A DNA stretch of 64,000 nucleotides from Candidatus Spongiisociaceae bacterium (GTDB lineage: Bacteria; Actinomycetota; Acidimicrobiia; Spongiisociales; Spongiisociaceae), in the NCBI GenBank assembly GCA_965202675.1, contig OZ241842.1, forward strand, positions 899,188 through 963,187. Reading direction: 5' to 3'. Made by a program: the position numbers and the translations under genes. The notes below the pieces were generated by a model that did no database searches, had not been told where the DNA came from, and saw only the letters and a program-made list of their open reading frames with translations. Of this stretch, positions 12,046 to 62,762 are shown piece after piece. Every line of letters starts with the position of its first letter. The stretch's first letter is position 1.

Positions 12046-12049
12046 CAGC

Positions 12050-43317: not shown

Positions 43318-43373
43318 GTCGAAGAATCTTCTCGCAGCAACGCACCGAGCCGACCCGGACGGATGCCGGTTGC

Positions 43374-45079: not shown

Positions 45080-45468
45080 CGGCGTACATCGACACCAACA
45101 TCCTCGTCCGCCACATAACGGGCGACCATCCGGACCCGGCGGTCCGCGCCGGCGCCTTCATCGACGAAGCAGACGAACTGTTGCTGCCGGAGGTCATCGC
45201 CGCCGAGACGGTGTACGTACTCGAGTCCGTCTACGGGCTCAGCCGCGACGAAACAGCCGAGGTCGTGCGCTCGGTGATCGCCCACCGATCGATCCGCACG
45301 CCGGACGCCCCCCTGCTGTTGAAGTCGCTCGACATCTACCAGGACCACCGGATCGACTTCCCCGAGGCCTACCTGGCGGCGGCCGCCGAATCCACCGGCG
45401 TAGGCATCGTCGCGTCCTTCGACCGCGCCGTCGACCGGGTCTCTTCGATCACCCGCGTCGAGCCCTGA
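45070..45468 (+). CDS. vapC: VapC-type PIN-domain toxin
   Basis: MALTAYIDTNILVRH…D…E…D PIN residues. It overlaps the antitoxin stop by 10 bp. The ORF-track 450-aa frame (44116-45468) is an artefact apart from this 3' part. Confidence 0.75.
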   Translation: MALTAYIDTNILVRHITGDHPDPAVRAGAFIDEADELLLPEVIAAETVYVLESVYGLSRDETAEVVRSVIAHRSIRTPDAPLLLKSLDIYQDHRIDFPEAYLAAAAESTGVGIVASFDRAVDRVSSITRVEP

Positions 45469-45513
45469 ATCACGGAATGACAAAAAAATCCGTCAGATCC
45501 GCCGACAAGGGTA

Positions 45514-45542
45514 TTGACCTTGTCGCACCGATAGGGGATAAT
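45514..45542 (+). promoter_or_regulatory. Near-consensus sigma70-type promoter, TTGACC-17-GATAAT, reading rightward
   Basis: -35 at 45514-45519 and -10 at 45537-45542, about 660 nt upstream of the DUF499 operon start. Confidence 0.4.
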
Positions 45543-45731
45543 GAAGAAGTTGCAATCACCTCCGGTCCGCAGCCGGCGCAGACCGAGACAGGGATCATCT
45601 TCCGAACGCGACCCGCCGGGGTACTGACCAGGCGCGTCCGGATTCTCGGTGGTGGTGGCGGGGGCCGGGCCCGCGAAGCGGGGCGTGGGGCGGCGTTTTT
45701 CGCGTTCTTGCGGGGTCCGGGGGTCCGGATA

Positions 45732-45824
45732 GGGGCTTGACCAGGGGGTTCGCAGGGAACGAGCAGTGTGGTGGTGAACGGGGGCCAAGAGGTGCGATGG
45801 GGGCTTGACCAGGGGTTCGCAGGG
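45732..45824 (+). repeat. Pair of about 25-bp direct repeats (gggcttgaccaggg(g)gttcgcaggg) spaced 67 bp apart
   Basis: Copies at 45732-45757 and 45799-45824. Each contains a TTGACC motif. Confidence 0.7.
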
Positions 45825-46019
45825 TTCGGGCTTACTCGGTGTCGGGCTTTTCTCTGTGAGACGACCGTGGGTAAAAGGATGCACGCGGATAGGGATGCCT
45901 TCGCCGTTCCGTCGGCGAGGGCAGCGCCCTGCCGCCATGCACATCGGGCAGACCATCCAACAGCTACTTGCGTCGGGACACCTTCCGGCTTCCCATCCGC
46001 GCACGGTCTTACCGCCCGG

Positions 46020-46127
46020 GTCAGACTGGTCTTGGGATCAACGATTAGCGCCACCCGACCGGGACGGGAAGCTGGTTGCGGAGGCGTTGTTGGTCAGACT
46101 GGTCTTGGGATCAACGATTAGCGCCAC
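46020..46127 (+). repeat. Pair of perfect 35-36-bp direct repeats (gtcagactggtcttgggatcaacgattagcgccac) spaced 73 bp apart
   Basis: Copies at 46020-46054 and 46093-46127, lying about 80 bp upstream of the DUF499 start. Confidence 0.8.
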
Positions 46128-46206
46128 GGGTACGCTGAGCTGAGACAGTCGACGCGCGGCGGCAATTTCATGGGCCCGATCCGATTCGGTAGTCTACGAT
46201 GTCAAG

Positions 46207-49200
46207 ATGGGCGGCATCCTTGAAAGTTGCAAGCCGCGGGCTGATGTACTGACCGGCGGGCTGACGGACAAGCACTTCGCCGCCCAGCTTGATCAGGTGG
46301 TCGCCAACGCTGCGGGCTACGAGGACTACGCCGACGCCGACCGGTTCTTTGACCTGACCTACCCGACTCAGGGTCTGCGCGACCTGCTGGGCGGCACCTT
46401 CGGGCGTATTAACACCAGACGCCCCCCCCCCCCGCGATAGTTTAGATACTTCTAACGCTGAGTACGCTGTTTATCGATATGAAACCAGCTTTGGGGGAGG
46501 CAAGACTCACGGGCTGATCGCCCTTTGGCATCTGGCACGCGGGGCCCGGCCCGGCAACCTGGCTGATTTTGTTGATCCGGGCCTGTTGCCCGAAACCTGC
46601 CGGGCGGCGGCGGTGGTCGGCGACGCCCTCGACCCGATCAACGGGCTGACCTCCGGCGGCATCACCACCTACACGCTGTGGGGTGAGATCGCCCGGCAGC
46701 TCGGCCCCGACGCCTGGGCCCTGATGGAACAGAGCGACGCCGCCCGCACCGGGCCGGGGAAACAGGTGTGGCTGGACATCTTCGGAGCGGGCCCCGCCGT
46801 CGTCATCATCGACGAGCTCGCCCAGTATCTGCGGCGGCTGGGCGCGTCGGGAGACCAAGCCGTACAGAACCTCGCCCGGGCCACCATCGACAGCCTCAAG
46901 GTGCTGTTCGAGGCCGCCACCGCCGCCCCCGCGGTGCGGATCGTCTTCACCCTGGCCACCGGCGTCGACGCCTTCCAGCGGGAGACCGACGAGCTGTCGG
47001 ACGCCCTCGACCAGGTGGCCGGGGAACAGATTCTCAACGAGGCCCGCGACGTCATGGAGCGGCCCAAGGGGGCGGTCGGCAAGCCCGCCGACGACTACGA
47101 GATCGGCTTCATCCTGCGCCGCCGCCTCTTCTCGCACGTCGACGAGACCGCGGCCGGCGCCGCCCTCACCGCCTACAAGGATCTCTACGCCGGGCTGGCC
47201 GAACGGGATGTCCGGGTCGGGACCGCCACCGACGACCCGGCCGCCTACTGCGACCGCATCCGCACCTCCTACCCGTTCCACCCGGCGCTGATCGACTGCC
47301 TCGACAAGCGCATCGGCCCCCTGCCCGGTTTCCAGCGGGCCCGCGGCGCGCTCAAGATGCTGGCCGAGGCGGTGCGGCGGATCTGGAACGACCGCGCCGA
47401 GCTGCCCATCATCAACCTGGGCGACCTGCCCCTCGAAGCCCAGGCGGTGCGAACCTGCATCACCAGCTCCATCGGCCGAGATGCGCTGGACGGACCCGCC
47501 CAGGCCGATTTCGCCGGCGCCAACTCCCACGCCGCCGGAGTGGACAACGAGCGCTGGCCGGACGAACGGGCCGCCTCCCGCGCCTGCCGCGCCGTGTTCT
47601 GCCACAGCGTCGCGGGCGAACCGGCGCCGGGAGCGGCCCTGCCCGACATCCATCTCGGCGTCCTCCGCCCCGGCGAGAACCCCGAAACGGTCGACGAAGC
47701 CCTGGCCGCGGCGAGCCGGGTGGCCTGGCACCTGGTGTCGGACGGGGCGCGCTGGCGGTTCCAGGTCGAACCCAACGCCAACCGCATCATCGCCGCCGAA
47801 ACCCAAAACGTTTCCCAGGCCGACGTAACAGAGGAGCTGAGCCGCCTGGTCGAACGGTTCTTCGCCTCCGACGGCGCCGTCAGAGCCGTCCACCGCCCCG
47901 CCGGACCCGCCGATGTTCCCGACCAGCCCAAGCTGCATCTCGCTGTCCTGGACTGGACCGACACCAGCGTGGCCGCCCGCGACGCCGCCGAGCCGCCGCC
48001 CCCGGTGGCTGAGATCGCCGACTGGGCGGGGGTGTCCGAAACCAACCGCACCCACCGCAATGCGGTCATAGCCCTGGTCGCCGACGCAGACGAGCTGGAG
48101 GCCATGCGCGATCAGGTCCGGTTCGACCTGGCCGCCCGGCGGATCACCCGCGACGACGAACGCATGCAGCAGCTGGGGCCGGAGGTGGTCAAGCGGCTCA
48201 AGAAGCTGGCCGACGCGGCGGGCCTGGAAACCCGGGTGGCGGTGTGCCGCGCCTACCGGCACCTCTACTGGCCCGCCCGCGACCCCCAGAACCACAACCT
48301 GCGCCACTTCGAGCTTCCGCCCGCCCAGCAGGGCAAGACGCCCAAAGGCGCCCAGACCAAGGTCCTGATCGAAACCCTGCGGCGGCACGGCAAGATATCC
48401 GACTCCGCCCCCGCCACCGACCAGCTGGCCCGCGCCGCCGGTTTTCGCCGAAGCGGGGAGACGACCACCGCCGACCTGGCCGAGGTGCCCTGGCGCGACC
48501 CCGGCCAACCGATCCTCCTCGACCCGAGCCTGATCAGAGAGGCCGTCACGGCGGGGATAAGCAACGGCGCCTGGGTCTACTACGACGCCCGGAAAGAGAA
48601 GGCCTACGACGACAGCCGGGCACTCCCCCAGGTGCGGATCGACCGCGACGCCTGGCTCTACAGCCAGGACAAGGCGCGCGACCTCGGCCTGCTGCGCCGA
48701 CCGGTAACGCCCGACCTGATCGCCCGGGCCGTCAACCAAAGGGAAGGCAGGGCGATCACCGGGCCGGCCCTGCGGTCGAAGCTGGAAGACGACATCGGCG
48801 GGGAGCCGACCAAGAAAGAGGTGCTGGAGTCGCTGGCCGCGGGCCGCTCGGCCGCAGACCCGGTAATCGTGATCGACGCAACCGCCGCCGAACCGAAGGC
48901 CCTGACGCCCGCCGCCGTCAGGCGCGCCCGGCTCGACGACCTGGAGATTCTCACCGCCGGCGCAGCGGACCGGCGGGGCATAACGGTTCCCGAGCACGAC
49001 CCGGCTCCGATCGTCAAGGGGCAGGGCGGCGTGGGCATGGCCTTCCAGCAGATCGCCGACCGCGTCGCCGACCTCGGCGTCGACTCGATCACGAGCATCA
49101 CGATCAGAACCGATGCCGACCCCGGCGGCGGAACCCGGAACCTGCGGCTGCTGAGCCTATGCATCCCCCAGCTTCCGAAGTTCGCCTGCCGGGTCAAGGC

Positions 49201-49471
49201 GTCCATCACATCCGAATACCACGGGCTGGCAGGCGGGCTGAAAGTAGACCTGTCGGGCGGCGCCCGCGAATACCAGCAGATCGAGTCCGCCCTGCTCGGC
49301 CTGGCCGATGCGGGCAACAAGACCGCGGGCCACCTGAGCGTCAAGCTGACCCCGGCCGCCCCGATCAGGCACGGCGGCGGCCGATGGACGCAGCTGCACC
49401 AGGTCGTCAGGGCCAACAATCCGGGCCGGATCAGCATCACCGCCCAGCTGGCCCGGCCCGACGGCGGGTGA
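46207..49471 (+). pseudogene. DUF499-family ATPase (BrxC/PglY-like), split by a +1 frameshift inside a C12 homopolymer (phase-variable or OFF state)
   Basis: The 77-aa N-terminal ORF (…PRADVLTGGLTDKHFAAQLDQV…FFDLTYPTQGLRDLL…) ends in the poly-C tract at 46422-46433. Downstream, in frame +1, …YETSFGGGKTHGLIALWHLARG… (Walker A) continues into the 961-aa ORF 46586-49471. Removing one C fuses the frames. Confidence 0.75.
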
Positions 49472-49480
49472 GGCCGGCCG

Positions 49481-49912
49481 GTGGCTGTTCCCCGAATGTC
49501 CGAGCGGCGGTTCGTGATGCGGCTCCACCCCACCCCCGCCGCCGACGACTGGGGGTTCTCGCTGAGCGAAGAAATCGGAGCGGAGTCGACCACCGTGGCG
49601 GCGTTGCCCGCGCACCGGGCCCGGCGGCACCGCCGGGCGGTGATCGAAGCGGTAACGGCGGACGGTTACCCGGCGAGCGCGGTCAGCCCGCGCCGGCGGC
49701 GGCCCTTCAACCTGACCCAGGAGCCGGGAGTCCGCCTGGCCCTAGCGGTGCGGGCAGCGGCACCCGTCCGCAAGGTAGACCGCCGAATGGCCATCACCGA
49801 ACGGCTGAGGACCATGGGCGATGAAGAGGCCCTCTACTGGTATGCCCAGGTGAGCGGCACCGGCGGAGGACGCGCCCTCCGAGCCCTGCGGCTGTTGCTG
49901 GCCACGGAATGA
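49481..49912 (+). CDS. DUF3780-like small protein of the DUF499/DUF1156 cassette
   Basis: About 140 aa. Its position between DUF499 and DUF1156 matches the canonical gene order, and its stop overlaps the next start (ATGA). Confidence 0.5.
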   Translation: MAVPRMSERRFVMRLHPTPAADDWGFSLSEEIGAESTTVAALPAHRARRHRRAVIEAVTADGYPASAVSPRRRRPFNLTQEPGVRLALAVRAAAPVRKVDRRMAITERLRTMGDEEALYWYAQVSGTGGGRALRALRLLLATE

Positions 49913-52875
49913 GCCAGCCGGACCCCGCCCAAGCGGATCCTGTTACCCGCCCGCGGCTGTTCATCGAGGAGAGTTTCCCCGTAAGGGAATTGGGCATCGA
50001 GTCGGTGCGTGAGAGCGCACCGATACCCGGACAGTTTCCCAAACTCAAGACCCTGCACGTTTGGTGGGCAAGACGACCGTTGGTAGCCAGCGCCGGTGCC
50101 ATCCTAGGTAGCCTGCTCCCGGCCTGGACCGAGGAGCTGGCAGAACGATTCGCGGACTATCCCGAACTCGCTACTGCTAAAGATTATCGCGAATGGTTTC
50201 TATGTATGTGTGGCATCTGGGGCGACCCAATCGCGGCCCGAGAGCTTGTCCTAATTGCGAAAGCAACGGGGATACGTAACGCCAAAAATCCATACACGTA
50301 CAAACAGGCCTTCAAGAACATTCCGACTGCAGGCAACCTAGGTATTTTGCACGAATTATTAGAGGATACATGGGGGCAAATACCCTTCGTTTCCGACCCG
50401 ACTGCAGGTGGGGGTTCGATTCCTTTCGAGGCCTTGCGCTACGGGTTGGCTGCTCATGCAAACGACCTTAACCCGGTCGCTGTCAGTGTGCTACGGGCTG
50501 GGGTCGAATTGCCTGCCCGCTATGGAATGGGCCTCAACGCCGACCTAGAAACCTGGGGGCGTCTGTTAGTAGATCGGCTTAACAACCGTCTAGGCCCATT
50601 CTTCCAACCTCATGACGATCAAACTGGTAAAGCCGCCACCTTTATCTTCGCCCGGACAGTAGCCTGCCCGCGCACCGGCAAAACGGTACCTCTGGTGGGA
50701 GACTGGTCGTTGCGCCGGGTCAGGAATCCAGCGGCGGTGCGGCTCATCACCCACCGCGACGGCATCGAGCTCGACGAACCCGAGTACCAGATCGTCGAGG
50801 GCCTAGACATCGACTTTCATCCTAAGGACACGGCCACTTATTCACGCGGCAAGGGCATCTCACCCTGGGATGGACTGGTGATCGACGGCAACTACATACG
50901 GGCCGAAGCCCAGGCCGGACGCATGGGTGAAGTCCTCTACGCAGTGGCCGTCCGCACCCCCAAGGGCCGCGGCTTCCGGGCCCCCACCGAGACCGACCGG
51001 GCCGCCTTGGCCGCCGCCGAAGCAGAGCTGAAACGGTTATTGCCTCAATGGGAACAGGAAGATGTGCTACCGACCGAGGCGGTACCCCATGGCACCAAAA
51101 CAAAAGACTTGCTCAACTACGGGATGACGCGCTGGCGAGATCTGTTCACCCCGCGGCAGCTACTGTTGCACGGTTGCTTCGTGGAAGAATACCACAAGCT
51201 GATCCACGAAGTCCGAGCCGCCATTCCCGAACGCGACCGGGCTGACGCGGTGCTCGCACTGCTAGCGATGGTGCAAGGCAAGGCGGTCAGCTATAACTCG
51301 CGCCAGGCCGGGTGGCATGTCAACCGTGGTCAATCGGCCCCCACCTTTGCCATGCATGCCTTCCCGTTCATGAAAACCTTCGCCGAGTTTGAGGGCGGTC
51401 GAGAGCTATATCCATGGTGTCTCCGACAGTTACTCGACGCCTACTCCGGTATTGCCGATCTGTTACCGGGTACCGCCGACCTGCCTGGCCCCGAAAGCCC
51501 AGTCCTCAGCGGCGAACCCCGAATCGAGGTAACCAAGGGCAACGCCGGATACATGCCCGACATCCCTGCCCGGAGCTTTGAGCTGGTGTGCATAGACCCG
51601 CCCTACTACGATAACGTGATGTACGCAGAGCTGTCCGACTACTTCTACGTGTGGAAAAAACGCACCATCGGCAAGCTCTGGTCCGAGTTCTTCGACGACG
51701 AGCTGACCAACAAACACGACGAGGCGGTCAAAAATAAGACTCGCTTCGCCGCTATGGGACGACGGGCGAACGAGCTTGCAAGCAGCGACTACCAGTTCAA
51801 GATGCAGGCCATCTTCGACGAGTGCCACCGCATCGTGCGCGACGAGGGCGCAATGTGCGTGATGTTCACACACAAGGCGACTGACGCCTGGAACGGTCTG
51901 GGGGCATCGTTGCTGGATGCCGGATTCACAATCGAGGCATCCTGGCCCATGAGCACCGAGTCGCCAGCTTCGTTGCACCAGGCCAAGAAGAACGCGGTCA
52001 AATCGACCATCTTCCTGGTGTGCCGCAAGCGGCCGGACCGGCCCGACGAGGGCGAGCGTATCTACCTTTCCGAAATCGAGGCGGAAGTCCGCGCCGCAAC
52101 GGGAGAGGCCCTGCTCCGCGCCGCCGAGCAGGGTTTGAGTGGGGTAGACCTGCTGCTGTCGACCTACGGCCCAGCCCTTTCGGTGCTGTCGCGCCATTGG
52201 CCGGTCTACTCCGCCGAGACCGACGACGAAGGCCGTTCCCGACGGCTACACCCCGAAGAGGCCCTCGACATCGCCCGGGCCGAAGTTACCCGCCGCCAGC
52301 GCATCCGCCTGGTAGGGCGCGAAGTAGAATTCGACCCGTTTACAGACTTCGCGATCGCCGCCTGGGATACCTTCCGTACCCGGCAGTTTCCCTTCGACGA
52401 CGCCCGCCGTCTAGCCCTGGCCGCGGGCGGACTTGATCTGTCCGAGCTGAAACGAGCCAAGCTCGTCAGGGCCAAAGCGGGCAATGTCACCATGCTCGAA
52501 CCCCGCGAGCGGCTGCGCCGCGACGGAGACGAAGACCTGTCCGGCGTCAACCGAAGCCGTTCCGCCTTTGCGGTCGCGGTCGACGCGGTGCACACCGCCC
52601 TATACATCACCGACCTCGACGGCCTCGGGGCGGCCAAGCACTGGCTCGACCAGCGCGGCCTGACCAACAACTCGCGCTTTACGGCCTGCTTGCAGGCGCT
52701 GGTAAGGGCGATCCCCCGCACCAAGACAAGGGGCGAGTGGAACCTGCCCGAGGCCGAGCTACTCGACGACCTGGTTACCACCTACTTCCCCGACATCGAG
52801 GTCCCACCCGACCCGGGCGAGGACCCCGAGCAGCTAACCCTTGACAACTCGAACGACGATCCATCCGATGGCTGA
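49909..52875 (+). CDS. DUF1156-family N6-adenine DNA methyltransferase
   Basis: N-terminal …LHVWWARRPL… signature and catalytic DPPYYDNVMY motif. 988 aa. Confidence 0.8.
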   Translation: MSQPDPAQADPVTRPRLFIEESFPVRELGIESVRESAPIPGQFPKLKTLHVWWARRPLVASAGAILGSLLPAWTEELAERFADYPELATAKDYREWFLCMCGIWGDPIAARELVLIAKATGIRNAKNPYTYKQAFKNIPTAGNLGILHELLEDTWGQIPFVSDPTAGGGSIPFEALRYGLAAHANDLNPVAVSVLRAGVELPARYGMGLNADLETWGRLLVDRLNNRLGPFFQPHDDQTGKAATFIFARTVACPRTGKTVPLVGDWSLRRVRNPAAVRLITHRDGIELDEPEYQIVEGLDIDFHPKDTATYSRGKGISPWDGLVIDGNYIRAEAQAGRMGEVLYAVAVRTPKGRGFRAPTETDRAALAAAEAELKRLLPQWEQEDVLPTEAVPHGTKTKDLLNYGMTRWRDLFTPRQLLLHGCFVEEYHKLIHEVRAAIPERDRADAVLALLAMVQGKAVSYNSRQAGWHVNRGQSAPTFAMHAFPFMKTFAEFEGGRELYPWCLRQLLDAYSGIADLLPGTADLPGPESPVLSGEPRIEVTKGNAGYMPDIPARSFELVCIDPPYYDNVMYAELSDYFYVWKKRTIGKLWSEFFDDELTNKHDEAVKNKTRFAAMGRRANELASSDYQFKMQAIFDECHRIVRDEGAMCVMFTHKATDAWNGLGASLLDAGFTIEASWPMSTESPASLHQAKKNAVKSTIFLVCRKRPDRPDEGERIYLSEIEAEVRAATGEALLRAAEQGLSGVDLLLSTYGPALSVLSRHWPVYSAETDDEGRSRRLHPEEALDIARAEVTRRQRIRLVGREVEFDPFTDFAIAAWDTFRTRQFPFDDARRLALAAGGLDLSELKRAKLVRAKAGNVTMLEPRERLRRDGDEDLSGVNRSRSAFAVAVDAVHTALYITDLDGLGAAKHWLDQRGLTNNSRFTACLQALVRAIPRTKTRGEWNLPEAELLDDLVTTYFPDIEVPPDPGEDPEQLTLDNSNDDPSDG

Positions 52876-55800
52876 GCGCCCGCCGGGGTGCTTCCAGGGC
52901 CTCGACCTCGCTACCCGCTACTCGGCGGGCGCCAGGGACATGCTGGCCGATTTCTACGTCCCGGTGCTGTCGAGGGCGGTGCGCTACGACCGGGCGGCGG
53001 GCTACTTCGCCTCGTCGTCGTTCTACGCGGCGGCGGCCGGGATGGCCCGGTTCATCGACAACGCAGGCGAGATACGGCTCCTGGTCGGCGCGCAGCTCAC
53101 CGAGGACGACCACAAGGCCCTGCTCGGCAATGTTCCGCTGGACCACATCCTGGCCGAACGCCTGCGGCGGGAAGGGCCGACCGTCGACGACGTGGCCCGG
53201 CGGCGCCTGCAGGTCATCGCCTGGCTGGTGAGAGAAGGGCGGCTGACCATCCGGGTCGGACTGCCCTGCGACGACTTCACCGGGGCGCCGATCCCCGACC
53301 CCGACGATCCGCGGCAACACAAGTACTTCCACATCAAATGGGGCGTGCTCGAAGACGCCGCCGGCGACCGGCTGGCCTTCGACGGCAGCATCAACGAATC
53401 GGCGTCGGGTTGGCAGAGCAACTACGAGTCCTTCAGCGTCTACCAGTCGTGGAGCCGACAGGCCTGGCGGCAATACGGCCGGCCGATCGTCAACGAGTTC
53501 GAACGGCTCTGGCGCGGCGGCGAGGTGCACGGCTGGCGCAGCCTGGCCCTGCCCGAGGTGGAACAGCGCCTGATGGACCTTCTGCCCGCCGAGCCCGGCT
53601 GGGCGCCGCCGGCCCGGGACCCGCTCGAACCCGAGCTGAGCGAGGCCGACCGGGCGGCGATCGCGGAGATCCGGGCCGCCCCCCGCCGCGGCGCCGGCGT
53701 GGGAATGATGTCGAGCGGCATCGAACCCTGGCCCCACCAGCTGGCCATCGCCCGGCGCATCTGCGAGAACCGGCCCCGCAGCTACCTGCTGGCCGACGAG
53801 GTGGGACTGGGCAAGACCATCGAGGCGGGGCTGGTGCTGCGGGAGCTGTGGCTCGGCGGTCAGGTGGAAACGGCGTTGATCCTGGCCCCGGCGTCGATTC
53901 TGATCCAGTGGCAGGAGGAGCTGGCCGAGAAGTTCCTGCTTGAGGTCCCCCGCCTGGACGGGCGCAGGCTGCGTTTCCCCGGCGGGGCGGAGCGGCGTCT
54001 GGAGCGCGGCGAGAACCGTTGGCGGGCGGCGCCGGTGCTGCTGTCGTCTTCGCATCTGGCCCGGATGCGCTCCAACCGCGCCGAGCTGCTCGACGGGCCC
54101 GGCTGGGACCTGGTGTTCGTCGACGAGGCCCACCACGCCCGGCGGCGGGGGTCGAGGCCCTCCGACTCCCCCAACCAGATGCTGGCAACCCTGAAGGCGC
54201 TGGCCGAGGAGAACCTGTTCGGGTCGCTGCTGCTGGCGTCGGCCACCCCCATGCAGCTCCACACGCACGACCTCTGGGACCTGCTGGCGCTGTTCGGCCT
54301 GCCGGACGGCTGGAACCGCAGCGCCGACGCCATGGAGCGCTACTACCGCGCCCTCCAGGAGCCGTTCGGCGACCGCGACTGGGTCCATCTGCAGAAGATG
54401 ATGGCCGGTTACCTGGAGGAAGCGGCGCCCGACCCCTATGTCGTGGAGATGATCGAAGAAGCGGCGGGCTTGGTGGGGGCGGCCCGCATCCGCGGGTTCC
54501 ATGAGAACCCCGGGTTCCGCTCGGGCGGTGTCGAAGAGGAGGCGAGGCCGTCCTGGGACGACTGGCTGCGGGCCAACACGCCGGTGCGCGCCCGGGTGTT
54601 CCGCACCACCCGGGCGACCCTGCGCCGCTACAAGCAGACCGGGGTGCTGGACCCCGATACGGTCATCCCGGAGCGGCGCATCGACGACCGGTTCTACAGC
54701 CTGGGCGGGGCCAAACCCCTCTACGACCGCATCGAGCGCTACATCCTGCGCTACTACGACGCCTACCTGTCCGCCGGGGGCAGGAGCGCGCCGCTCGGCT
54801 TCATCATGACCGTATACAGGCGGCGGCTGACCTCGAGCTTCTACGCCATCCGCAAATCCCTGGAGCGGCGGCGCGAGGTGCTGGCCCGCCGGGGTTCGCT
54901 GCCCGGCCTGCTCGACGAAGACGACCGGTTTGCCGCTGAGGGCGCCGAGGGCCTCGACGACCTAGCGGGGCTCGACAACCTGGAGGCCGGCGACCTCGCC
55001 CTGGCGGGCGGGGACCTGCGGGCGGAGCTGGCCGAGCTGGACGACTTCATCGGCGAGCTGGGGAACCTGCCGCCCGACGAACCCAAGATGGAAGGACTGT
55101 ACGACCTGCTCGACCACAACTTCGGTTCGGGCGCGCACGACACGGCGGTGATCTTCACCCAGTACCGCGACACCCTCGAATACATCCGCCGGCAGCTGCT
55201 CAATATCTACCGGGGCGGGCTGGCCTGCTACTACGGCGGCCGGGGGGAATGCTGGGACGAAGCGTCCGGATCATGGGAGCGGGTCGGCAAGGAAACCATC
55301 AAGGAGCGGTTCCGGCGGGGCGAGGTGAAGATACTGCTGGGCACCGACTCCATGTCGGAGGGCCTCAACCTGCAGACCTGCGGCTGGCTGATCAACTTCG
55401 ACCTGCCCTGGAACTTCACCAGGGTGGAGCAGCGCATCGGTCGGGTGGACCGCATCGGCGGCCAACCGGAGGTGCAGGTCAGCAACTTCTTCTACAAAGG
55501 CACCGTGGAGGAGGACATCTACCGCCGCATCCGCGACAGCCACGACTGGTTCTCCAACGTAATCGGCAACGCCGCCCCGGTGCTGGCCGCCGCCGAGAGC
55601 CTGATATCCGACGCCGCCATGAGGCGCAGCACCACCGAGCAGGCCGCCGTCGAGATCAAAGACCTGATCGCCCGCCTCGACCGGGCAGCCGTCCGCCTCG
55701 AAGACCTCGACTCCGTACCCCGCTTCGACACCGACCTACAACCCCCCATGACCCTCCCCGACCTCCGCCGCCGCCTCCTCTCGATAGCAGCCGTCCAAGA

Positions 55801-55975
55801 CCTCCTAACCCCACCCGACGGCCCCGCCCCCAAAGACATATGGCGCCTAACCCTGAACGGAACCGACCACCACATAACCTTCACCCCCACCCTCTACGAA
55901 CAAACCCCCCGCCTCAACCTCCTCACCTGGGGCAGCCCCCTCCTCACCCGCCTCCTAACCCACCTCGACCCCTGA
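52868..55975 (+). CDS. SNF2/DEAH helicase with N-terminal PLD-like nuclease domain
   Basis: N-terminal …RYDRAAGYFASSSF… (PLD-like), then helicase motif I LLADEVGLGKTIEAG, motif II FVDEAHHAR and a C-terminal helicase domain (…LLGTDSMSEGLNLQ…). The start overlaps the DUF1156 stop by 8 bp. Confidence 0.8.
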   Translation: MAERPPGCFQGLDLATRYSAGARDMLADFYVPVLSRAVRYDRAAGYFASSSFYAAAAGMARFIDNAGEIRLLVGAQLTEDDHKALLGNVPLDHILAERLRREGPTVDDVARRRLQVIAWLVREGRLTIRVGLPCDDFTGAPIPDPDDPRQHKYFHIKWGVLEDAAGDRLAFDGSINESASGWQSNYESFSVYQSWSRQAWRQYGRPIVNEFERLWRGGEVHGWRSLALPEVEQRLMDLLPAEPGWAPPARDPLEPELSEADRAAIAEIRAAPRRGAGVGMMSSGIEPWPHQLAIARRICENRPRSYLLADEVGLGKTIEAGLVLRELWLGGQVETALILAPASILIQWQEELAEKFLLEVPRLDGRRLRFPGGAERRLERGENRWRAAPVLLSSSHLARMRSNRAELLDGPGWDLVFVDEAHHARRRGSRPSDSPNQMLATLKALAEENLFGSLLLASATPMQLHTHDLWDLLALFGLPDGWNRSADAMERYYRALQEPFGDRDWVHLQKMMAGYLEEAAPDPYVVEMIEEAAGLVGAARIRGFHENPGFRSGGVEEEARPSWDDWLRANTPVRARVFRTTRATLRRYKQTGVLDPDTVIPERRIDDRFYSLGGAKPLYDRIERYILRYYDAYLSAGGRSAPLGFIMTVYRRRLTSSFYAIRKSLERRREVLARRGSLPGLLDEDDRFAAEGAEGLDDLAGLDNLEAGDLALAGGDLRAELAELDDFIGELGNLPPDEPKMEGLYDLLDHNFGSGAHDTAVIFTQYRDTLEYIRRQLLNIYRGGLACYYGGRGECWDEASGSWERVGKETIKERFRRGEVKILLGTDSMSEGLNLQTCGWLINFDLPWNFTRVEQRIGRVDRIGGQPEVQVSNFFYKGTVEEDIYRRIRDSHDWFSNVIGNAAPVLAAAESLISDAAMRRSTTEQAAVEIKDLIARLDRAAVRLEDLDSVPRFDTDLQPPMTLPDLRRRLLSIAAVQDLLTPPDGPAPKDIWRLTLNGTDHHITFTPTLYEQTPRLNLLTWGSPLLTRLLTHLDP

Positions 55976-56200
55976 CCCCCCGATTTACCGGCGCGCCTGC
56001 GCAGCCCCTTCAAATCCAGATCGGGCGGGCAGATCCGGCGACGCGTGGACAACCGCGCCGGACCCGTGTTAGCATAGAAAGATGACCGCCATCACTGACA
56101 CCGCGGAAGCATCTACCGGCCTTGCCGTACCGGATCAAGGCTACGAAGGCCCGCCCCTAGAAGAAATCAAGAGCGTTCTACCGTTCAAGGTAGCAAAGCT

Positions 56201-56952
56201 AACCGTCTTATAGAAGAGAAAGGAAAATGAATGGCCATAACCACCAATGTAATCACACGCACTTTCCGAATTAAATATGGAGTACAAACTGGAACTTGCT
56301 TTACCATTGATATTGATGAACGTCAATATATTGTAACGGCTAAACATATCGTAGCAGATATAAACCCCAACGACAATATTCAAATTCTACATGAAGGTAA
56401 ATGGAAGGAATTGACAACAAACATTGTTTGGATACCTAACTCAGATGAAGATATTGCGATTCTAGCTCCTGAAATTCGAATCTCACCTCCCTTTTTATTA
56501 ATTCCTAGCATGGAAAGGATGTATTTGGGTCAAGATTTGTATTTTTGTGGGTTTCCTTTCGGGTTGAACACTGAAGTCGGGACACTAAATCGTGATTTTC
56601 CTGTCCCTTTCATTAAGAAAGGAATCGTTTCAGCTGTTGAAACTAGAGAGAACTGTTCAGCCCGAATCTACATTGACGGCCATAATAATCCCGGATTTTC
56701 TGGAGGCCCTGTTATTTTTACTGATCCGAAAACGAATGAACTCAAAGTCGCAGGAGTTATTAGTGGCTACTACCCAAATTATGAACCAGTTCTTAAAAAC
56801 AATAATCGCACCGAATTAATGAGCATACAAAACACTGGTATAGTGATCGCATATGCTCTGGGAAGAGCAGTAACCTACATTGAAGAACACCCTACGGGTG
56901 TACCTGCAAAACCTAGCCTAGAGGATAGCGGATAGGTATTAACCGTCTTATA
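56201..56952 (+). mobile_element. AT-rich gene cassette bounded by 13-bp perfect direct repeats TAACCGTCTTATA
   Basis: Repeats at 56201-56213 and 56940-56952 enclose only the protease gene. GC is about 36%. Confidence 0.55.
56231..56935 (+). CDS. Trypsin-like (S1/chymotrypsin-fold) serine protease
   Basis: Catalytic-triad context TAKHIV (His), DEDIAIL (Asp) and GFSGGPV (Ser). Strong RBS aggaaaatga. Confidence 0.65.
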   Translation: MAITTNVITRTFRIKYGVQTGTCFTIDIDERQYIVTAKHIVADINPNDNIQILHEGKWKELTTNIVWIPNSDEDIAILAPEIRISPPFLLIPSMERMYLGQDLYFCGFPFGLNTEVGTLNRDFPVPFIKKGIVSAVETRENCSARIYIDGHNNPGFSGGPVIFTDPKTNELKVAGVISGYYPNYEPVLKNNNRTELMSIQNTGIVIAYALGRAVTYIEEHPTGVPAKPSLEDSG

Positions 56953-57110
56953 TACTCATGATGCACCACACAAAGGCGACTTTATTTAACCCGATATTCA
57001 GAAGCGGTTCCCTGAGGCACAGGGCGTAATATTCGTGTTTCACAAGGCACCCGGCTTGCCCGACTAGATTTCGGCAGACGGTATTCAGTAGTATGGTAAG
57101 GTGAGGCATC

Positions 57111-57374
57111 ATGACAGCAACATCCCGACAAGTCTTGCCGTGGACGAAGCACGGTTCAGAAGACTGCCCCTACGAGGACGAGAACGCTTGCGTCGACGCG
57201 TGGACCGTAGCTCATCGGGAGCAACTAGACCGATTCACTGAGAAAGTGCTCGCCGATCTGGCCGCCGAGTCGCCCGAAGATTATACGCTCAACAGCGAAG
57301 GACGAACGCCACGCCCGCCCGGTCTCCGGGCCGCGGGGTCGCGGCCGTTGAAGGCGGTACCGAGGGCTAACTGA
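57111..57374 (+). CDS. Hypothetical protein (87 aa)
   Basis: Good RBS (aaggtgagg). No homology call. Its C-terminus runs into the coxM-derived repeat. Confidence 0.3.
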   Translation: MTATSRQVLPWTKHGSEDCPYEDENACVDAWTVAHREQLDRFTEKVLADLAAESPEDYTLNSEGRTPRPPGLRAAGSRPLKAVPRAN

Positions 57375-57655
57375 GCAGCGGTGGCGAGGGCGGCTTTTAA
57401 CGGCCCGGGCGGTGTACACCTTGGCCAGGTGGGTCTTTGTACTCAACCGAGCCGTAGAGGTCCTCGAGCACCTTTATGCCGTCCACGGCGTGGGAGGCCG
57501 CGGCTGATACGGCGGTGTCGGAGCCGTCCGTGCCTACCAGGGCGGCGACCGCCGCATCGGCCCGCGGTCGGGCGGTTGCCCACTCCGGTTACGGCCGTGG
57601 CGGCGCTGATATACCCGTTGGACCTGGTTATTGAGGCGGCTACCCCGGCCGCGGC
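57338..57655 (-). repeat. Degenerate copy of the coxM 3' end (attL/attR-like direct repeat, copy A)
   Basis: About 92% identical to 61870-62188, with indels that break the coxM frame (the fragment translates as …THLAKVYTARAVK…). Confidence 0.8.
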
Positions 57656-57797
57656 AGGTGAGCCGCTTGGTACGGACCCTCCACCTCTAACACGCCGTTT
57701 CAAGGCTCATGCCAAGCCTCGATTCCACGATCAAGTACCGAAGATTATGCGAGGAGAGATCCTAGTGAGGCACATGACTGCCTACTATTCCTCAAAA

Positions 57798-58925
57798 CTA
57801 TAAGGGGTACATAGTAGCCACGATTTCTCTTACAACGAGGTGAGAAATTCGATTGCGCCCGTTACCACCCATAGTACTGAACCTACTTGAAGGAACCGTA
57901 TGCTCCCGTACTCGATACCATTGCTGAGCTAGATTGACCAGTTTTTCTCCGTTCATTCCATTAGAAGCTGTTCCAGAGGGAAAGGTGAGAACTACACGGC
58001 AACCGTTTTGGGATAAAGTATAAAGTAGTTCCTTCATTACCTTCAGAGCTTGAGATTTAATACTGTAGGCTGAACTAGGTCTTTCCGAAATGGGAGGGTA
58101 TCGCCCGACTCCTGACACAGATCCGCACTTACCCCGAGCTAATGTTTCTAGTACATGATAGAATCGACTGTAATGGACTGATGAATAAGGCGGATCAACA
58201 AACACGACGTCGTCTTCGTTAAGCGTACGAGCTAGTACGTTAGCGTCCGCCATATCCGCTGTACCTTTCTGCAGAGCATGTCGACTAGCAAGATCAGGAA
58301 GCTTATCCATGATGTAAGAAATAGGGTCGATCCGCCAACTATCTGCTATATGTGGTAAAGCCGAACGAGTTGGCTGGAATGGCTGAGCTGTATGCCCGGG
58401 AGAAGCAGCACAACGAGATGCGGCTAAGATAATCAGAGCCTGACAAAAACGCTTAAGCTGAGAACTATGCCGTGGCAAATTTTCAAGGAGCGAATCAAAA
58501 ACCATAGCTTGCCGTGGTGAAAAATAATGACCGCCATATGCCGTCCAAATCAAACCACCAGTTTGAGAACTACACAACCCTCTTGCTTCTAACACAGTTT
58601 CTATTTTTTCAACATCCTCTACCGAAAGGGACTGGAAAAGGGGACTACGTGCAAGAGCAAGTTTGACTGGGTTTAGCCAGCCTTCTACAACACGAGACTG
58701 ATCAAGAGGCCTATCACGCTCAATTACAGCTCCAGCTAGAACAACAGCATAGCGCTGTAAATCAGCGGCCAAAACCGATAAGCCGCGCGCCTGTGCCACA
58801 TACCAGGATACTCGCCCTGTTCCCGAAAATAAGTCTACGAACCTCTTCGCTGTGTCAGCCTCGGCTAGCACTATTTCACCCAGCCCATTCTCAAGCATTG
58901 CCAACTTGGACCCCATATACTTCAT
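57798..58925 (-). CDS. D12-class (Dam-like) N6-adenine DNA methyltransferase
   Basis: N-terminal KYMGSK (AdoMet motif I-like) and catalytic VFVDPPYSSVHY. 375 aa, GC about 45%. Confidence 0.7.
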   Translation of the reverse strand: MKYMGSKLAMLENGLGEIVLAEADTAKRFVDLFSGTGRVSWYVAQARGLSVLAADLQRYAVVLAGAVIERDRPLDQSRVVEGWLNPVKLALARSPLFQSLSVEDVEKIETVLEARGLCSSQTGGLIWTAYGGHYFSPRQAMVFDSLLENLPRHSSQLKRFCQALIILAASRCAASPGHTAQPFQPTRSALPHIADSWRIDPISYIMDKLPDLASRHALQKGTADMADANVLARTLNEDDVVFVDPPYSSVHYSRFYHVLETLARGKCGSVSGVGRYPPISERPSSAYSIKSQALKVMKELLYTLSQNGCRVVLTFPSGTASNGMNGEKLVNLAQQWYRVREHTVPSSRFSTMGGNGRNRISHLVVREIVATMYPL

Positions 58926-60262
58926 GATACTAGCCCCATAATAGCGAACCTTCCTAGATTCGTCGTCTCGTGGAGAGAGCGTGCACAGTTGACAAAAAAT
59001 CCTTGGATAGACTGATCATCAGAATCAATCCATTCTTCAATATCTTCTAATGCGCTAGCTACATCCGCCCACAGATCTGTAATATTTTCAGGTCTATTAA
59101 TATCTTTCCATAGTCCTATTTCCCACCCTCTTATACTCCACCAAAATTCTAACGTCTGAAAGTCTATGTTTGTAGCTCTCATAAAATCACTTGCTGCTCC
59201 GGTAGCTATATGAAGCAGAAAAAAGGCACGACTTAATAGTGGACGAGGATCACCATAATAATCACCTCTACCTGATGATAATCTAATAAGTTTTGGTACC
59301 TTTTGATCTAAAATTTTACCTAAAATAAACCGTTCTACTTCTTTGTATAAGTAACCATCTTCAAGGACGGCTGTAAGCATAGTGTCCACTTGTCTTTTCA
59401 ATTCGTCAGGGTGATCTTGTAACGTAGGCATAGAATTAAAAATATTCTCTACTGTCTGACACAAAAAGTATAGATCCAAGATATCAATACCTCCCTGTGT
59501 AGTAGAGGGCTCAAGTTTACGAACTATATCAGAAACATATTTGATAGGTTTCATAAAATTTCGATTTCTGTAACTAGAAATATAAAGAGGTCCATAGCTA
59601 GCGGCATTTCTTAAGAATCGATCATTAGTCATCCGCTTTAGATCAACACCAAAGTCGTACAACATCTTCGAGGCATTGATAAGGGCCGGGCCTTCTTCCC
59701 CTACACATGGCATTTCGTTAATCCACATCGTCAAAGGTATCGAGCGAGGACGAACTATTCGACCTAATAGAACACCAGCATCTCTTGATTTCAGCCAATG
59801 TTCTAAATATAACCAGATCGCATGATGAGTTGATCGTCGTTTATCAGATATTAAATGAGCATTGCCTGCTACGTCTATTATGCAATGATGTTGATCAAAT
59901 ACACCAATACCTTGACTTGCCAAAAGCGACATAGTTGCGCGCATCTCTGCGTAATAACCTAGATGAATCGCTATTGGCTCTCCGCGTACCTGGGCATAAA
60001 GAGCTTGTCCTAGGTACTCCCAACTATCAATGAGATGAAAGAGTATTGATACAGCTATGTATTCTCTTAGATCATGTGAATTCAGGTTGCCCTTTTTATC
60101 TTCCTTCTTAATACTTTTTACAAGGTTATTATAGTAGGTATTGTTCCTATTAAGCCAACGGTCATTGCCAAAATTGTTAAGCAAAGATGGCGCGGATTTT
60201 TGAATACCATCTGGCGAAGCCAAGTTTAAATATTCCTTTTCTTGTGAACTCAATTTATACAT
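58922..60262 (-). CDS. Hypothetical protein, 446 aa, no recognisable motifs
   Basis: Overlaps the neighbouring genes by 4 bp upstream and 8 bp downstream, consistent with an operon. Low GC. Confidence 0.6.
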   Translation of the reverse strand: MYKLSSQEKEYLNLASPDGIQKSAPSLLNNFGNDRWLNRNNTYYNNLVKSIKKEDKKGNLNSHDLREYIAVSILFHLIDSWEYLGQALYAQVRGEPIAIHLGYYAEMRATMSLLASQGIGVFDQHHCIIDVAGNAHLISDKRRSTHHAIWLYLEHWLKSRDAGVLLGRIVRPRSIPLTMWINEMPCVGEEGPALINASKMLYDFGVDLKRMTNDRFLRNAASYGPLYISSYRNRNFMKPIKYVSDIVRKLEPSTTQGGIDILDLYFLCQTVENIFNSMPTLQDHPDELKRQVDTMLTAVLEDGYLYKEVERFILGKILDQKVPKLIRLSSGRGDYYGDPRPLLSRAFFLLHIATGAASDFMRATNIDFQTLEFWWSIRGWEIGLWKDINRPENITDLWADVASALEDIEEWIDSDDQSIQGFFVNCARSLHETTNLGRFAIMGLVS

Positions 60263-61754
60263 TATAATTCAGTTTCTGAGCAACATCTTGTGCTATTACC
60301 GCTAATCTGCTCTCGGAATTGCTCAAATAACGGAGAAGATCCTCTCGAAGTTCTTTATATCCTGTACCACCTCGAAACCGTGCCTTAGCCTGGCGTTGCT
60401 GTTCGGATAAACCAGTAGCCTTTGACGAACGCCAATCGTATCCGGTAAGACCCTTAGCTATATCACCAACATACTCACCAACTGGTTGTTCTTCTAGGGA
60501 TACCAAGGCACTGGATACATCCTCCTCAGAAGTAGCGGAGCCTGGATCGCAAATCCAACTGCGAAGCTCTTGTTCGTCGGCCTGAATAAAGCATAGGTCG
60601 TTCAAAGTGTAAAGAAACCCGCGCACTCCCATATCCGAGTTGAGCATAGTTTCCTCACCTTCAAAAGCTGGATCAGGTGAAATATAATTGTCCTTTCGCA
60701 AATTTCTTATCCAGTCATATTCGGATTTAGCTATTTCTTCTTTTAATTTATTCCATGCATATATTAGAAAGGCTGCTTGTTGTGATCGAGACCATGGAAG
60801 CACTGTTTTGTTCTCTCCTACTGGTGCTCCAAATAAGCCACCTACTTGAACGCGCGGGCCTTCCCAACTCTTAACAAAAGTTGTCTGGAGATTACGAACC
60901 CAGGAATTTTGGGTCACCATTTTTCTTTGCTGACCTAACATATCTATACGTTGATGCCATGGGCTCTTAGGATGAGCCCAGAGAGCTTCGGTAAGCTCCT
61001 GCGACCGAGTAGCCTTATATATAGTGTCATCAAAACGTTCCAGCCAATCCTCTGTCCTAAGGAGCGGATACAGATCAAAAGCAAGACTCGAATTAATCCG
61101 CTTTGGTTTTATATTGATAGTATAGAAAAGATAAGCTTGCCAACTCCGATCCAATCCATAGAAGGCAACAACAGGTAACTCATATCCAGTAAGCTGATCA
61201 GCGCTCTCTTCAAAGGCCCACAACCTGTGCTGACCATCAATAACCTCAAGCGGAGGTAATGTTTCGGATAACTCCCAATTTGAATCGCCTGATTCTGGCA
61301 ATTCAACAAGTGCAGAGCCGTTTTCTTTAAGTTCTACATTTATCTGATCGTCTAGATGAACGGAGCGACCACGATGATCAGTATCTCCAGGCGACAAGAT
61401 ATTGACAATCACTGCCGTCGGTAGCCAACCCGGTTTCATGAGATCAGTATAATTCGAGCTTTCTCTTTTTGTTTGGCTCAGGCCAGACCATGGGAACCCG
61501 TGTTGTATATAATTAGCAATCTCCTCGGATCGCTTTACTTCGTGACCTCTCTGTATCCCAAGATCAAGTGCCCGAGCACCGGTTGTGGAACGGCGTTGTA
61601 TGCCGGTGAGACGGCGCAACTCAGAAGCATCAAGCGAAAAGAGTAGGAACCAAGGTTTCGGCTTCCGCCGAAACTGTTCGTCGTCAAATTTCACCCTATC
61701 CCATTCACTGAGCCACTGATTCACGATCAGAGCAGGGATTTTCTTTTTTGGCAT
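60255..61754 (-). CDS. DGQHR-domain protein (DndB-like)
   Basis: …PLEVIDGQHRLWAFEE… signature motif. 499 aa, first gene of the three-gene operon, with an RBS aggag upstream. Confidence 0.75.
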   Translation of the reverse strand: MPKKKIPALIVNQWLSEWDRVKFDDEQFRRKPKPWFLLFSLDASELRRLTGIQRRSTTGARALDLGIQRGHEVKRSEEIANYIQHGFPWSGLSQTKRESSNYTDLMKPGWLPTAVIVNILSPGDTDHRGRSVHLDDQINVELKENGSALVELPESGDSNWELSETLPPLEVIDGQHRLWAFEESADQLTGYELPVVAFYGLDRSWQAYLFYTINIKPKRINSSLAFDLYPLLRTEDWLERFDDTIYKATRSQELTEALWAHPKSPWHQRIDMLGQQRKMVTQNSWVRNLQTTFVKSWEGPRVQVGGLFGAPVGENKTVLPWSRSQQAAFLIYAWNKLKEEIAKSEYDWIRNLRKDNYISPDPAFEGEETMLNSDMGVRGFLYTLNDLCFIQADEQELRSWICDPGSATSEEDVSSALVSLEEQPVGEYVGDIAKGLTGYDWRSSKATGLSEQQRQAKARFRGGTGYKELREDLLRYLSNSESRLAVIAQDVAQKLNYNV

Positions 61755-61869
61755 GTAACTCCTGATTCTTCACGTTGATTGAATCTGAGGCCGAACCCTC
61801 CAGCTTTTGCGACCTGGGGTATTCATTCTGGCCACATTAACAGTCCTCCACCCGCCTGGATGGGTTGCA

Positions 61870-62188
61870 GGCGGCGGTCAAGGCGGTACCGGGGGCTAAC
61901 CGGCGGCGGCGAGGGCGGCTTTGACGGCCCTGGCGGTGTACACCTTGGCCAGGTGGGTCTTGTACTCGACCGAGCCATAGAGGTCCTCGAGCACTTCTAT
62001 GCCGTCCACGGCGTGGGAGGCCGCGGCTTGTACGGCGGCGTCGGAGCCGTCCGTGCCTACCAGGGCGGCGGCCGCCGCGTCGGCGCGCGTCGGGCGGTTG
62101 CCCACTCCGGTTACGGCCACCGTGGCGGCGCTGATATACCCGTTGGACCTGGTTACCGAGGCGGCTACCCCGGCCACGGCGTAGTCGG
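61870..62188 (-). repeat. coxM 3'-end repeat, copy B (part of intact coxM)
   Basis: Direct-repeat partner of 57338-57655. Confidence 0.8.
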
Positions 62189-62762
62189 AATGGCCTCCCC
62201 GGCGGCCCAGCTTGTCGTAGGCCGAACCGGTTCCGGGGCCTGCCTTCGGGATGCGCATCTCGGTGAGGATCTCGTTGGGTTCCAGCGCCGAGGTCATCGT
62301 GTCGACGAAGAAGTCGGCGGCGGCGATCTCCCTCGTCCCGCCGGACGAGGCCGCCACCATCACCGCCCCGAGCGCCAGCGCCGCCACCGGCTGGTCGGCG
62401 GCCAGGTCGGCGTGGACCATCGACCCGCAGCAGGTGCCGCGGTTGCGCACCTGGCGGTCGCCCGTCCAGGAGGCGGCGGCGGCCAGCGCTGAGGCGCGCT
62501 CTTGGATCAGGCTGCTGGAGGCCACCTCGGCGTGGCGCACCAGGGCGCCGATCGAGATGTGGCCGCCGTTGTCGGCAATGCGGTCCAGCCCGCCGATCCG
62601 GCCGATGTCGACCACCATCGGCGGCGACAACAGGCGCATCTTCATCAGCGGGAGCAGGCTCATGCCGCCGGCCAGCACCTTGGCGCCGGGGTTGGCGTCG
62701 AGGGCGGCCAGCGCCTCGCCCAGGCTCTCCGGAGCGGCGTAGTCGAACTGTCGTGGATACAT
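61896..62762 (-). CDS. coxM: Molybdo-flavoprotein FAD-binding (medium) subunit, CoxM/XdhB-like
   Basis: MYPRQFDYAAPESLGEALAAL…AGGMSLLPLMK… is the FAD-binding PCMH-type domain. Confidence 0.85.
   Translation of the reverse strand: MYPRQFDYAAPESLGEALAALDANPGAKVLAGGMSLLPLMKMRLLSPPMVVDIGRIGGLDRIADNGGHISIGALVRHAEVASSSLIQERASALAAAASWTGDRQVRNRGTCCGSMVHADLAADQPVAALALGAVMVAASSGGTREIAAADFFVDTMTSALEPNEILTEMRIPKAGPGTGSAYDKLGRRGGHSDYAVAGVAASVTRSNGYISAATVAVTGVGNRPTRADAAAAALVGTDGSDAAVQAAASHAVDGIEVLEDLYGSVEYKTHLAKVYTARAVKAALAAAG

Follow-up and report, generated by a model that had tools for sequence, protein, structure and literature searches.

A DGQHR-domain protein, its unannotated partner X and an exchangeable DNA-modification gene: a widespread, mobile trio and candidate defence module

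How do three overlapping genes of low guanine-plus-cytosine (GC) content come to stand in a GC-rich genome, and what might they do together? The question is raised by a stretch of 64,000 nucleotides (nt) from a Candidatus Spongiisociaceae bacterium (contig OZ241842.1, positions 899,188 to 963,187), referred to below as the window, which carries a gene trio on its minus strand. The first gene (60255-61754, minus strand) encodes a DGQHR-domain protein of 499 amino acids (aa) with a ParB/Srx fold. The second (58922-60262, minus strand) encodes a 446-aa protein of an unannotated family, here called X, which is helical and has a HEPN-like domain. The third (57798-58925, minus strand) encodes a 375-aa D12-class (Dam-family) N6-adenine DNA methyltransferase of the long form (PF02086). 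A first-pass annotation, made from the letters and a list of open reading frames (ORFs), had described these genes as a three-gene operon on a low-GC block of about 4.2 kb and proposed them as a novel modification-linked defence module. Its coordinates are exact, and the reading frames overlap by 8 nt (DGQHR/X) and 4 nt (X/methylase). The block is equally real: the unique insert of low-GC foreign DNA, 57659-61874, measures 4,216 bp at 44.1% GC and holds the three trio genes only, with 37-48% GC inside and ~70% outside when measured over 500-bp windows. The motifs that had been quoted, LEVIDGQHRLWAF, MKYMGSK and VFVDPPYSS, all occur in the translations.

The case for treating the three genes as a unit comes from their distribution. 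A scan for X in one genome per species, covering 185,579 species, found relatives in 154 stretches or species genomes from more than ten phyla of bacteria and archaea. Carriers include Actinomycetota, Chloroflexota, Planctomycetota, Alpha-, Gamma- and Deltaproteobacteria, Cyanobacteria, Acidobacteriota, Bacteroidota, Verrucomicrobiota, Patescibacteria, Acholeplasmataceae and the archaeon Methanoregula. The loci compared (given L numbers where one must be named) are mostly metagenome-assembled, and their ORFs are the longest ones, called mechanically, with start codons and small genes uncertain. In every locus with upstream sequence (86/86) a DGQHR gene lies immediately 5' of X on the same strand, mostly with a junction of −4 to +6 nt. 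The reverse test agrees, as two DGQHR proteins taken from outside the list of X matches both proved to have X at their loci. Among 72,556 annotated plasmids, tblastn searches with X and with the DGQHR protein returned the same five records, in which the trio genes are labelled "DGQHR domain-containing protein", "hypothetical protein" and "Dam family methyltransferase"; the trio is present on Zymomonas and Rhizobium plasmids. It spans 9939-13601 on NC_022903.1 of Zymomonas mobilis CP4 and 446924-450849 on pRt932 of Rhizobium tumorigenes. The three proteins also diverge in step. Across 47 loci with the long D12 methylase their pairwise identities are correlated (Mantel r 0.59-0.68, p = 0.001), with mean pairwise identities of 50% for DGQHR, 46% for the methylase and 33% for X, the fastest evolving. 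By this comparative sequence evidence the three genes are passed on together and form a real, widespread unit; the expectation that they would be found together elsewhere is thus borne out.

The third member of this unit is nearly always present and frequently replaced. In the window it is a D12 enzyme, as had been called: PF02086 (MethyltransfD12) scores 60.6 bits against a gathering score of 22, an FSGTG motif lies near residue 33 and DPPY at residue 244, and the PADLOC MTase_II model matches at 79 bits. The protein clusters with 51 long-form methyltransferases located after X in other loci. Among 85 non-redundant loci, 81 have flanks adequate to judge, and 77 of those 81 contain an adjacent DNA-modification gene. 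The long-form D12 methylase (~384 aa) accounts for 51 of the 85 and a short D12 methylase (~286 aa) for 15. Seven have an MT-A70 or N6_N4 (PF01555) methylase or, in L078, a D12 domain read within the X ORF, and one (L044) has a type-I-like N6_Mtase/HSDR_N protein. Three loci (L064, L057 and L080) have DndC/DndD instead, four show no modification gene on contigs that are too short, and the last four are taken up below. The position of the methylase varies as well, since in some loci it lies upstream of the DGQHR-X pair or is transcribed towards it. In the plasmid collection, the sole methylase more than 30% identical to that of the window is the one in the Rhizobium trio, and the long form is therefore confined to the trio in that sample.

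The three dnd-type loci, two of them cyanobacterial, place DGQHR-X directly before DndC. The DndC proteins of L064 and L057 score 676-684 bits on TIGR03183 and that of L080 was assigned by clustering; a genuine DndD was confirmed in L064 (664 bits on TIGR03185). These DGQHR-X-DndC clusters span L064 52-4970, L057 64-4827 and L080 1798-4537, the last of them on a plasmid of Pseudanabaena biceps O153. In L064 they are preceded by a DndD-like ABC ATPase (179 bits, below the DndD cutoff) and a Uma2-family putative endonuclease, counterparts of which were assigned by clustering in L057 and L080, and L064 and L057 also contain a PLD-helicase match. The layout resembles the CxC-ATPase/"Pbe" systems described in PMC10853773. 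Another arrangement is seen in the Methanoregula locus (L026, 9383-14560), where no methylase stands beside DGQHR-X and the opposite strand encodes a Schlafen/AlbA_2 protein, a DndD-like ATPase (166 bits, below cutoff) and a PLD-SF2 helicase, possibly another partner system.

The DGQHR protein is the best conserved member. Profile search upholds the original call, as the TIGR03187 (DGQHR domain) model gives 68.3 bits against a cutoff of 58.85. The motif itself occupies residues 173-177, and the family alignment shows no variation at D173-G-Q-H-R177, Q206 or F210...N214; a C-terminal helical region of ~200 aa has no match. Evidence for a ParB/Srx fold was obtained. The family of ~500-aa proteins is large, and its best 120 matches are all at least 51% identical. 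Models of the named relatives fall short. DndB is matched by Pfam PF14072 at 27.2 bits, under the gathering score of 29.1 and over profile positions 14-159 of 338, and a full-length match is missing, with 60 bits on TIGR04172 against a cutoff of 450. For DpdB the best PADLOC match is 26.9 bits, and NF041060 gives 29.4 bits against a cutoff of 300. The DGQHR motif has been likened to the nucleoside triphosphate (NTP)-binding DGQQR motif of GmrS/DUF262 (PMC4619093), and binding of ATP and GTP has been shown for a DndB-like protein (PMC12704722). Profile-profile alignment by hhalign found nothing significant between the DGQHR family and the DUF262 protein of a close relative, or between DGQHR and X.

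Protein X had been described as free of recognisable motifs, and none of the Pfam, NCBIfam, PADLOC and PHROGs models matches it; Pfam likewise gave nothing for the 54 family members at E ≤ 10. A profile search of X against PDB sequences gave only noise, and hhalign against the HEPN_RiboL-PSP protein of a close relative was not significant. The structure model is nonetheless confident (predicted local distance difference test, pLDDT, 91; predicted template-modelling score, pTM, 0.92) and nearly all helical, and evidence for a HEPN-like domain was obtained. In an alignment of 54 sequences the polar residues S72, H76, D79, H100, Y103, Y104, E106, R108 and H146 are invariant, as are D207, D214, R218, N219, Y223, R345 and D400. 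This striking set suggests that X is an enzyme rather than a scaffold. The family is sharply bounded. A word-indexed search gave 147 homologues, and an exhaustive profile search of 1.84 billion protein representatives gave 1,235 clusters at E ≤ 1e-3 and 1,153 at E ≤ 1e-10, with essentially no twilight-zone tail and with remote relatives or fusions not found. Among the 150 homologues listed, lengths run from 380 to 476 aa and are mostly ~450. An apparent fusion of X to the methylase in L078 (826 aa) is probably an assembly indel, because the DGQHR gene of that locus is frameshifted and X and the methylase normally overlap by 4 nt; it was not used as evidence.

These observations suggest a scheme in which the D12 methylase acts as the writer and would mark host DNA with N6-methyladenine (m6A). 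The DGQHR protein would use its ParB/Srx fold to bind NTP and sense DNA, might also nick it, and would compare with the DUF262 domain of SspE, GmrSD and BrxU. Its obligate partner X may supply nuclease activity or transduce the signal. Together, presumably as a complex, DGQHR and X would tell marked from unmarked DNA and act on the unmarked DNA of an invading phage or plasmid, and the layout would be analogous to the SspE/GmrSD architecture split into two polypeptides. Under this proposal the writer can be exchanged because the core would read the state of modification and not one particular enzyme. The trio would then be a mobile restriction-modification (R-M)-like defence module, with a conserved DGQHR-X effector core and an interchangeable writer, a reading whose chances we judge to be even.

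A comparison with systems already described shows both precedent and departure. The closest is an operon type listed in a 2013 survey of HEPN domains by Anantharaman et al. as R-M-linked conflict systems, "HEPN (MAE_28990 family) + ParB nuclease + DNA methylase" (PMC3710099). The window and its homologous loci have the same gene neighbourhood of ParB-fold, HEPN-like and methylase genes, and the reading as an R-M-linked conflict system is also the same; it is purely computational, and in the literature searched the operon type is neither named nor tested. Since that operon type was already listed, the general architecture of the trio has a precedent. It differs in that none of 54 X proteins is matched by the Pfam HEPN_MAE_28990 model, so that X falls outside the family by sequence as judged by that model alone, and in that the Rx4-6H motif listed as conserved in the MAE_28990 family (PMC3710099) is not conserved in X. 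Fusions of ParB and HEPN domains, DndB included, were described by the same survey and by Makarova et al. in 2013 (DndB: PMC3632139); DndB as such a fusion parallels DGQHR and HEPN-like X as two proteins. The trio also shares with DndB the DGQHR/ParB-fold domain, and DGQHR-X fills the dndB position in 3/85 loci. It departs from the DndB system in its writer, a methylase in ~90% of loci, and in its obligate second protein X. Because DGQHR-X lies within a genuine dnd operon in those three loci, the module is related to Dnd and not independent of it.

Other systems are more distant. SspABCD-SspE and GmrSD/BrxU combine DUF262 with a DUF1524 HNH nuclease; no such combination is present in the trio, whose putative effector is a separate protein with a HEPN-like, non-HNH fold. 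SspE-type systems moreover use phosphorothioate, whereas the modification of the trio would usually be m6A. The 7-deazaguanine system Dpd likewise encodes a DGQHR protein, DpdB, with a DNA-modifying enzyme; Pfam scans of the examined island ORFs and of sampled neighbour genes found no DpdA/TGT-like domain. Type II R-M systems with a D12 methylase share an active-looking methylase (FxGxG, DPPY) in a compact mobile operon. They differ in that the trio lacks a recognisable endonuclease (no PADLOC restriction endonuclease or Pfam nuclease model matches DGQHR or X) and in that two conserved partners, of which DGQHR is the most conserved protein, replace a single fast-evolving restriction endonuclease, with the methylase exchangeable while the partners persist.

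The first-pass annotation had also not recognised the triad as a named system and had seen no dnd partner genes, and both points stand. In PADLOC-DB v2.0.0 neither X nor this particular DGQHR family has a model of its own, the DGQHR protein falls below the DpdB and DndB cutoffs, and full-text searches on DGQHR, DndB-like proteins, ParB-like proteins with HEPN domains and MAE_28990 turned up no paper in which the trio is named or tested. No window ORF is a homologue of DndC or DndD, and there is no dndA, dndC, dndD or dndE beside the DGQHR gene. The interpretation is supported, with three qualifications. The trio is recurrent and unnamed, but its architecture has the 2013 precedent, it is related to Dnd, and its role in defence is read from context. 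The novelty lies in a protein family, X, that had no annotation, in its strict pairing with DGQHR and in a writer that is exchanged between methylase families and phosphorothioation. The kind itself, modification-linked defence that combines ParB-fold with HEPN-like parts, is known.

Several results count against the defence module. Both characterised DGQHR proteins work on the side of modification and not of restriction: DndB is described as a non-essential negative regulator that limits phosphorothioation (PMC4507180; PMC12914056), and DpdB is described as the ATPase that drives base insertion, through which preQ0 enters DNA (PMC12839542). No nuclease domain (PD-(D/E)xK, HNH or PLD) is recognisable in DGQHR or X. 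Four loci with intact DGQHR-X (L017, L026, L043 and L058) have no modification gene within ~8 kb. The conservation of the DGQHR protein is unusually high for a defence effector, and the co-localisation of the trio with defence islands is an observation on individual loci and not a measured enrichment. A Foldseek search of the X model against the PDB gave nothing significant, Pfam HEPN models match 0 of 54 family members even at E ≤ 10, and the Rx4-6H motif is not conserved: across the 54 sequences H146 never changes and T145 hardly ever, but the residues at −4 to −6 vary or fall in gaps. For these three reasons X is best called HEPN-like and not a demonstrated HEPN member; the "RRSTHH" of the window protein, considered as a canonical Rx4H motif, was dropped, since T145-H146 alone is conserved. 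Much of this would fit a different role, in which DGQHR-X is a DndB-like governor that would bind DNA or NTP to repress, limit or target its writer within a regulated, essentially orphan epigenetic or protective modification system devoid of killing activity. DGQHR-X takes the place of dndB ahead of a genuine dndC in L064 and L057, and by clustering in L080, and the 50-60% identity of the DGQHR protein fits a housekeeping-like biochemical role. Yet ~950 co-inherited residues would then serve to regulate a methylase of 280-375 aa that normally works alone, and the dozen or so invariant polar residues of X are typical of an enzyme active site. Regulation by specific protein contacts also sits poorly with the free exchange of writer families, and the features of the cassette (a low-GC insert at a hotspot, location on plasmids, integrases and defence neighbours) are those of a defence or selfish element. 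A 2024 reappraisal of Dnd from the Aravind lab leaves the role of DndB open and doubts that it is a pure regulator (PMC10853773). Such a governor is accordingly a credible minority possibility.

If X is a latent HEPN-type RNase, the trio could instead be an abortive-infection guard of the PrrC type, in which DGQHR, the methylase or both restrain X until a phage interferes with modification or restriction. The HEPN-like domain fits this, as do the full BglII-type R-M systems that adjoin the trio in at least five loci and the DUF262 + HEPN pair at the same hotspot in relatives, and the survey of Anantharaman et al. proposes the same logic for HEPN domains in R-M operons (PMC3710099); set beside the domain evidence on X given above, the guard appears unlikely. 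Post-segregational addiction, with DGQHR-X as a stable toxin, the methylase as its antidote and no anti-phage role, would account for the tight three-gene linkage and for the occurrence of the trio on plasmids and integrated islands. The toxicity of DGQHR-X is a supposition, however, and four loci are without a writer; such a module would in any case be mechanistically equal to a selfish R-M system and compatible with defence. As a separate explanation it is very improbable. Chance juxtaposition of unrelated genes, or an artefact of annotation, has practically no probability left and is already refuted by the comparative data, given the 86/86 linkage over more than ten phyla, the significant co-evolution, the overlapping start and stop codons and the confident structure models.

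If the trio is a defence module, it adds a widespread one, with ~1,150 X clusters at 50% identity and at least 154 species genomes. DGQHR-X accompanies at least five kinds of methylase and, in a few loci, some of them cyanobacterial, genuine DndC, so that methylation- and phosphorothioation-based systems are linked by a pair common to both. We therefore raise, tentatively and as a doubtful extension, the idea that DGQHR-X is a modification-agnostic reader and effector core for unrelated writers (m6A methylases, the N6_N4 family PF01555 and DndCDE), a form of modular immunity with swappable self-marks. If true, the DndB-type proteins of dnd operons would be sensors or effectors of modification state and not mere transcriptional repressors, and X would define a new family of nucleases or other enzymes, built around a HEPN-like scaffold whose active site, formed by H100, E106, R108 and H146, is non-canonical. 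The debated role of DndB, as regulator, NTPase, nuclease or effector, becomes testable in a simpler three-gene setting, and the trio is carried by cultured, tractable hosts such as Zymomonas mobilis CP4, on a plasmid.

How the trio reached its present site can be read from the flanks. The insert is bracketed by a direct repeat of ~310 bp, a duplication of the 3' end of a coxM-like gene. The intact gene (61896-62762) encodes FAD_binding_5 and CO_deh_flav_C domains, the flavin adenine dinucleotide subunit of a carbon monoxide/xanthine dehydrogenase, and its last ~95 codons with ~20 nt downstream form repeat copy R (61875-62183). Copy L (57346-57658), which matches copy R at ~90% identity, is what remains of a frameshifted coxM 3' end. 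Against the coxM 3' end of a relative, copy R is 92.9% and copy L 87.1% identical, and copy L needs all three frames to be read; it runs on into a flank (57346-56957) that is collinear with what relatives have downstream of coxM. The insert ends (57659-61874) lack terminal inverted repeats. At the same site the insert is missing from the relatives L094, L095 and L096. Judged by repeats, composition and this absence, the trio is a discrete, recently acquired cassette. Its 5' leader (61755-61874, minus strand, 120 nt) contains a Shine-Dalgarno-like AGGAG, as read from the sequence, and presumably the promoter or operator of the operon; a consensus scan for sigma-70 promoters and terminators gave no more sites than in shuffled sequence.

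The cassette is part of a larger island. In L096, whose CoxM is 84% identical, coxM is followed by ~1.2 kb with one 322-aa ORF and then by prmC, sua5, glyA and the atp operon. Core genes resume in the window only at 42246, and from that contrast with the ~1.2-kb interval an island of ~19.6 kb (42247-61872) is delimited. It contains an AAA_14/DUF4143 ATPase ORF, a PIN-domain ORF, an Hma-like cassette, a protease gene and the trio. The closest relatives, L094 and L095 (CoxM 97% identical), have a DUF262/GmrSD_N + HEPN_RiboL-PSP pair (L094 11590-12711; L095 1287-2875) where the window has the protease gene (56231-56935, plus strand, 41-45% GC), a trypsin-like serine protease that matches the PADLOC LmuA and RT-Protease models. 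The difference takes the form of a cassette swap between identical flanks, in the window 55859-56175 and 56957-57346. Because relatives differ between the same conserved flanks, the site downstream of coxM is a hypervariable defence hotspot, at which one pair of a ParB-fold and a HEPN-like protein stands in for another from one close relative to the next.

The four-gene DUF499/DUF1156 cassette that had been named as the direct neighbour of the trio is real and of the Hma type. It comprises, all on the plus strand, an HmaC-like DUF499 ATPase (46586-49471; 224 bits, PADLOC), a small DUF7680 protein (49481-49912), an HmaB-like DUF1156 methylase (49909-52875; 245 bits, PADLOC) and a PLD + SNF2 helicase matching HmaA/PLD_Helicase (52841-55975; PADLOC). 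It is not directly adjacent, since the protease gene (56231-56935) and the coxM remnant (57346-57658) intervene. DUF7680 holds the position that DUF3780 has in a similar system of L003. A specific association of the trio with DUF499/DUF1156 systems was considered and set aside, as it occurs in only 3 of ~86 loci and reads as ordinary co-localisation within defence islands.

Elsewhere the trio has other neighbours: several loci contain BglII-type R-M systems, integrases or HsdM, and IS21 or TniB elements also occur. A BglII/BamHI-type restriction endonuclease stands directly beside the trio in at least five loci of different lineages (for example L001 4490-5883 and L042 4811-5422), a recurrent pairing with a classical type II R-M; the methylase that goes with it is of the N6_N4 family in L001 and of the short D12 type in L042. 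On the Zymomonas plasmid (L092, NC_013788.1) the trio is followed at 9938-11661 by a DarT (PF14487) + macro-domain pair, which resembles DarTG toxin-antitoxin defence. Plasmids pZZM401-405 (NC_013788.1 is labelled ZM4 pZZM405) derive from Z. mobilis CP4 and are absent in ZM4 (PMC5930841). A single-molecule real-time (SMRT) methylome of Z. mobilis ZM4 contains three motifs, none attributable to the trio methylase (PMC8432527). Since these plasmids come from CP4, that methylome is uninformative on the trio methylase, and the idea of a silent trio methylase drawn from it was rejected.

Three smaller features of the island remain. The segment 55500-56085, the 3' end of the helicase ORF, has a strong negative GC skew (−0.385), proline-rich plus-strand translations and direct repeats spaced 150 nt (55762-55969); either a C-terminal tail of low complexity or a stretch of non-coding repeats could account for this. 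At the left edge of the island (43374-45483), the AAA_14/DUF4143 ATPase ORF (43374-44624, minus strand) overlaps a 450-aa ORF with a C-terminal PIN domain (44116-45468, plus strand), and the two may be an ATPase and a PIN toxin. Finally, 45468-46001 matches L094 6463-6940 over ~500 bp at 74-85% identity. The matching segment lies upstream of coxS in L094 and before the DUF499 gene in the window, a difference in placement that suggests a rearrangement or a shared mobile flank.

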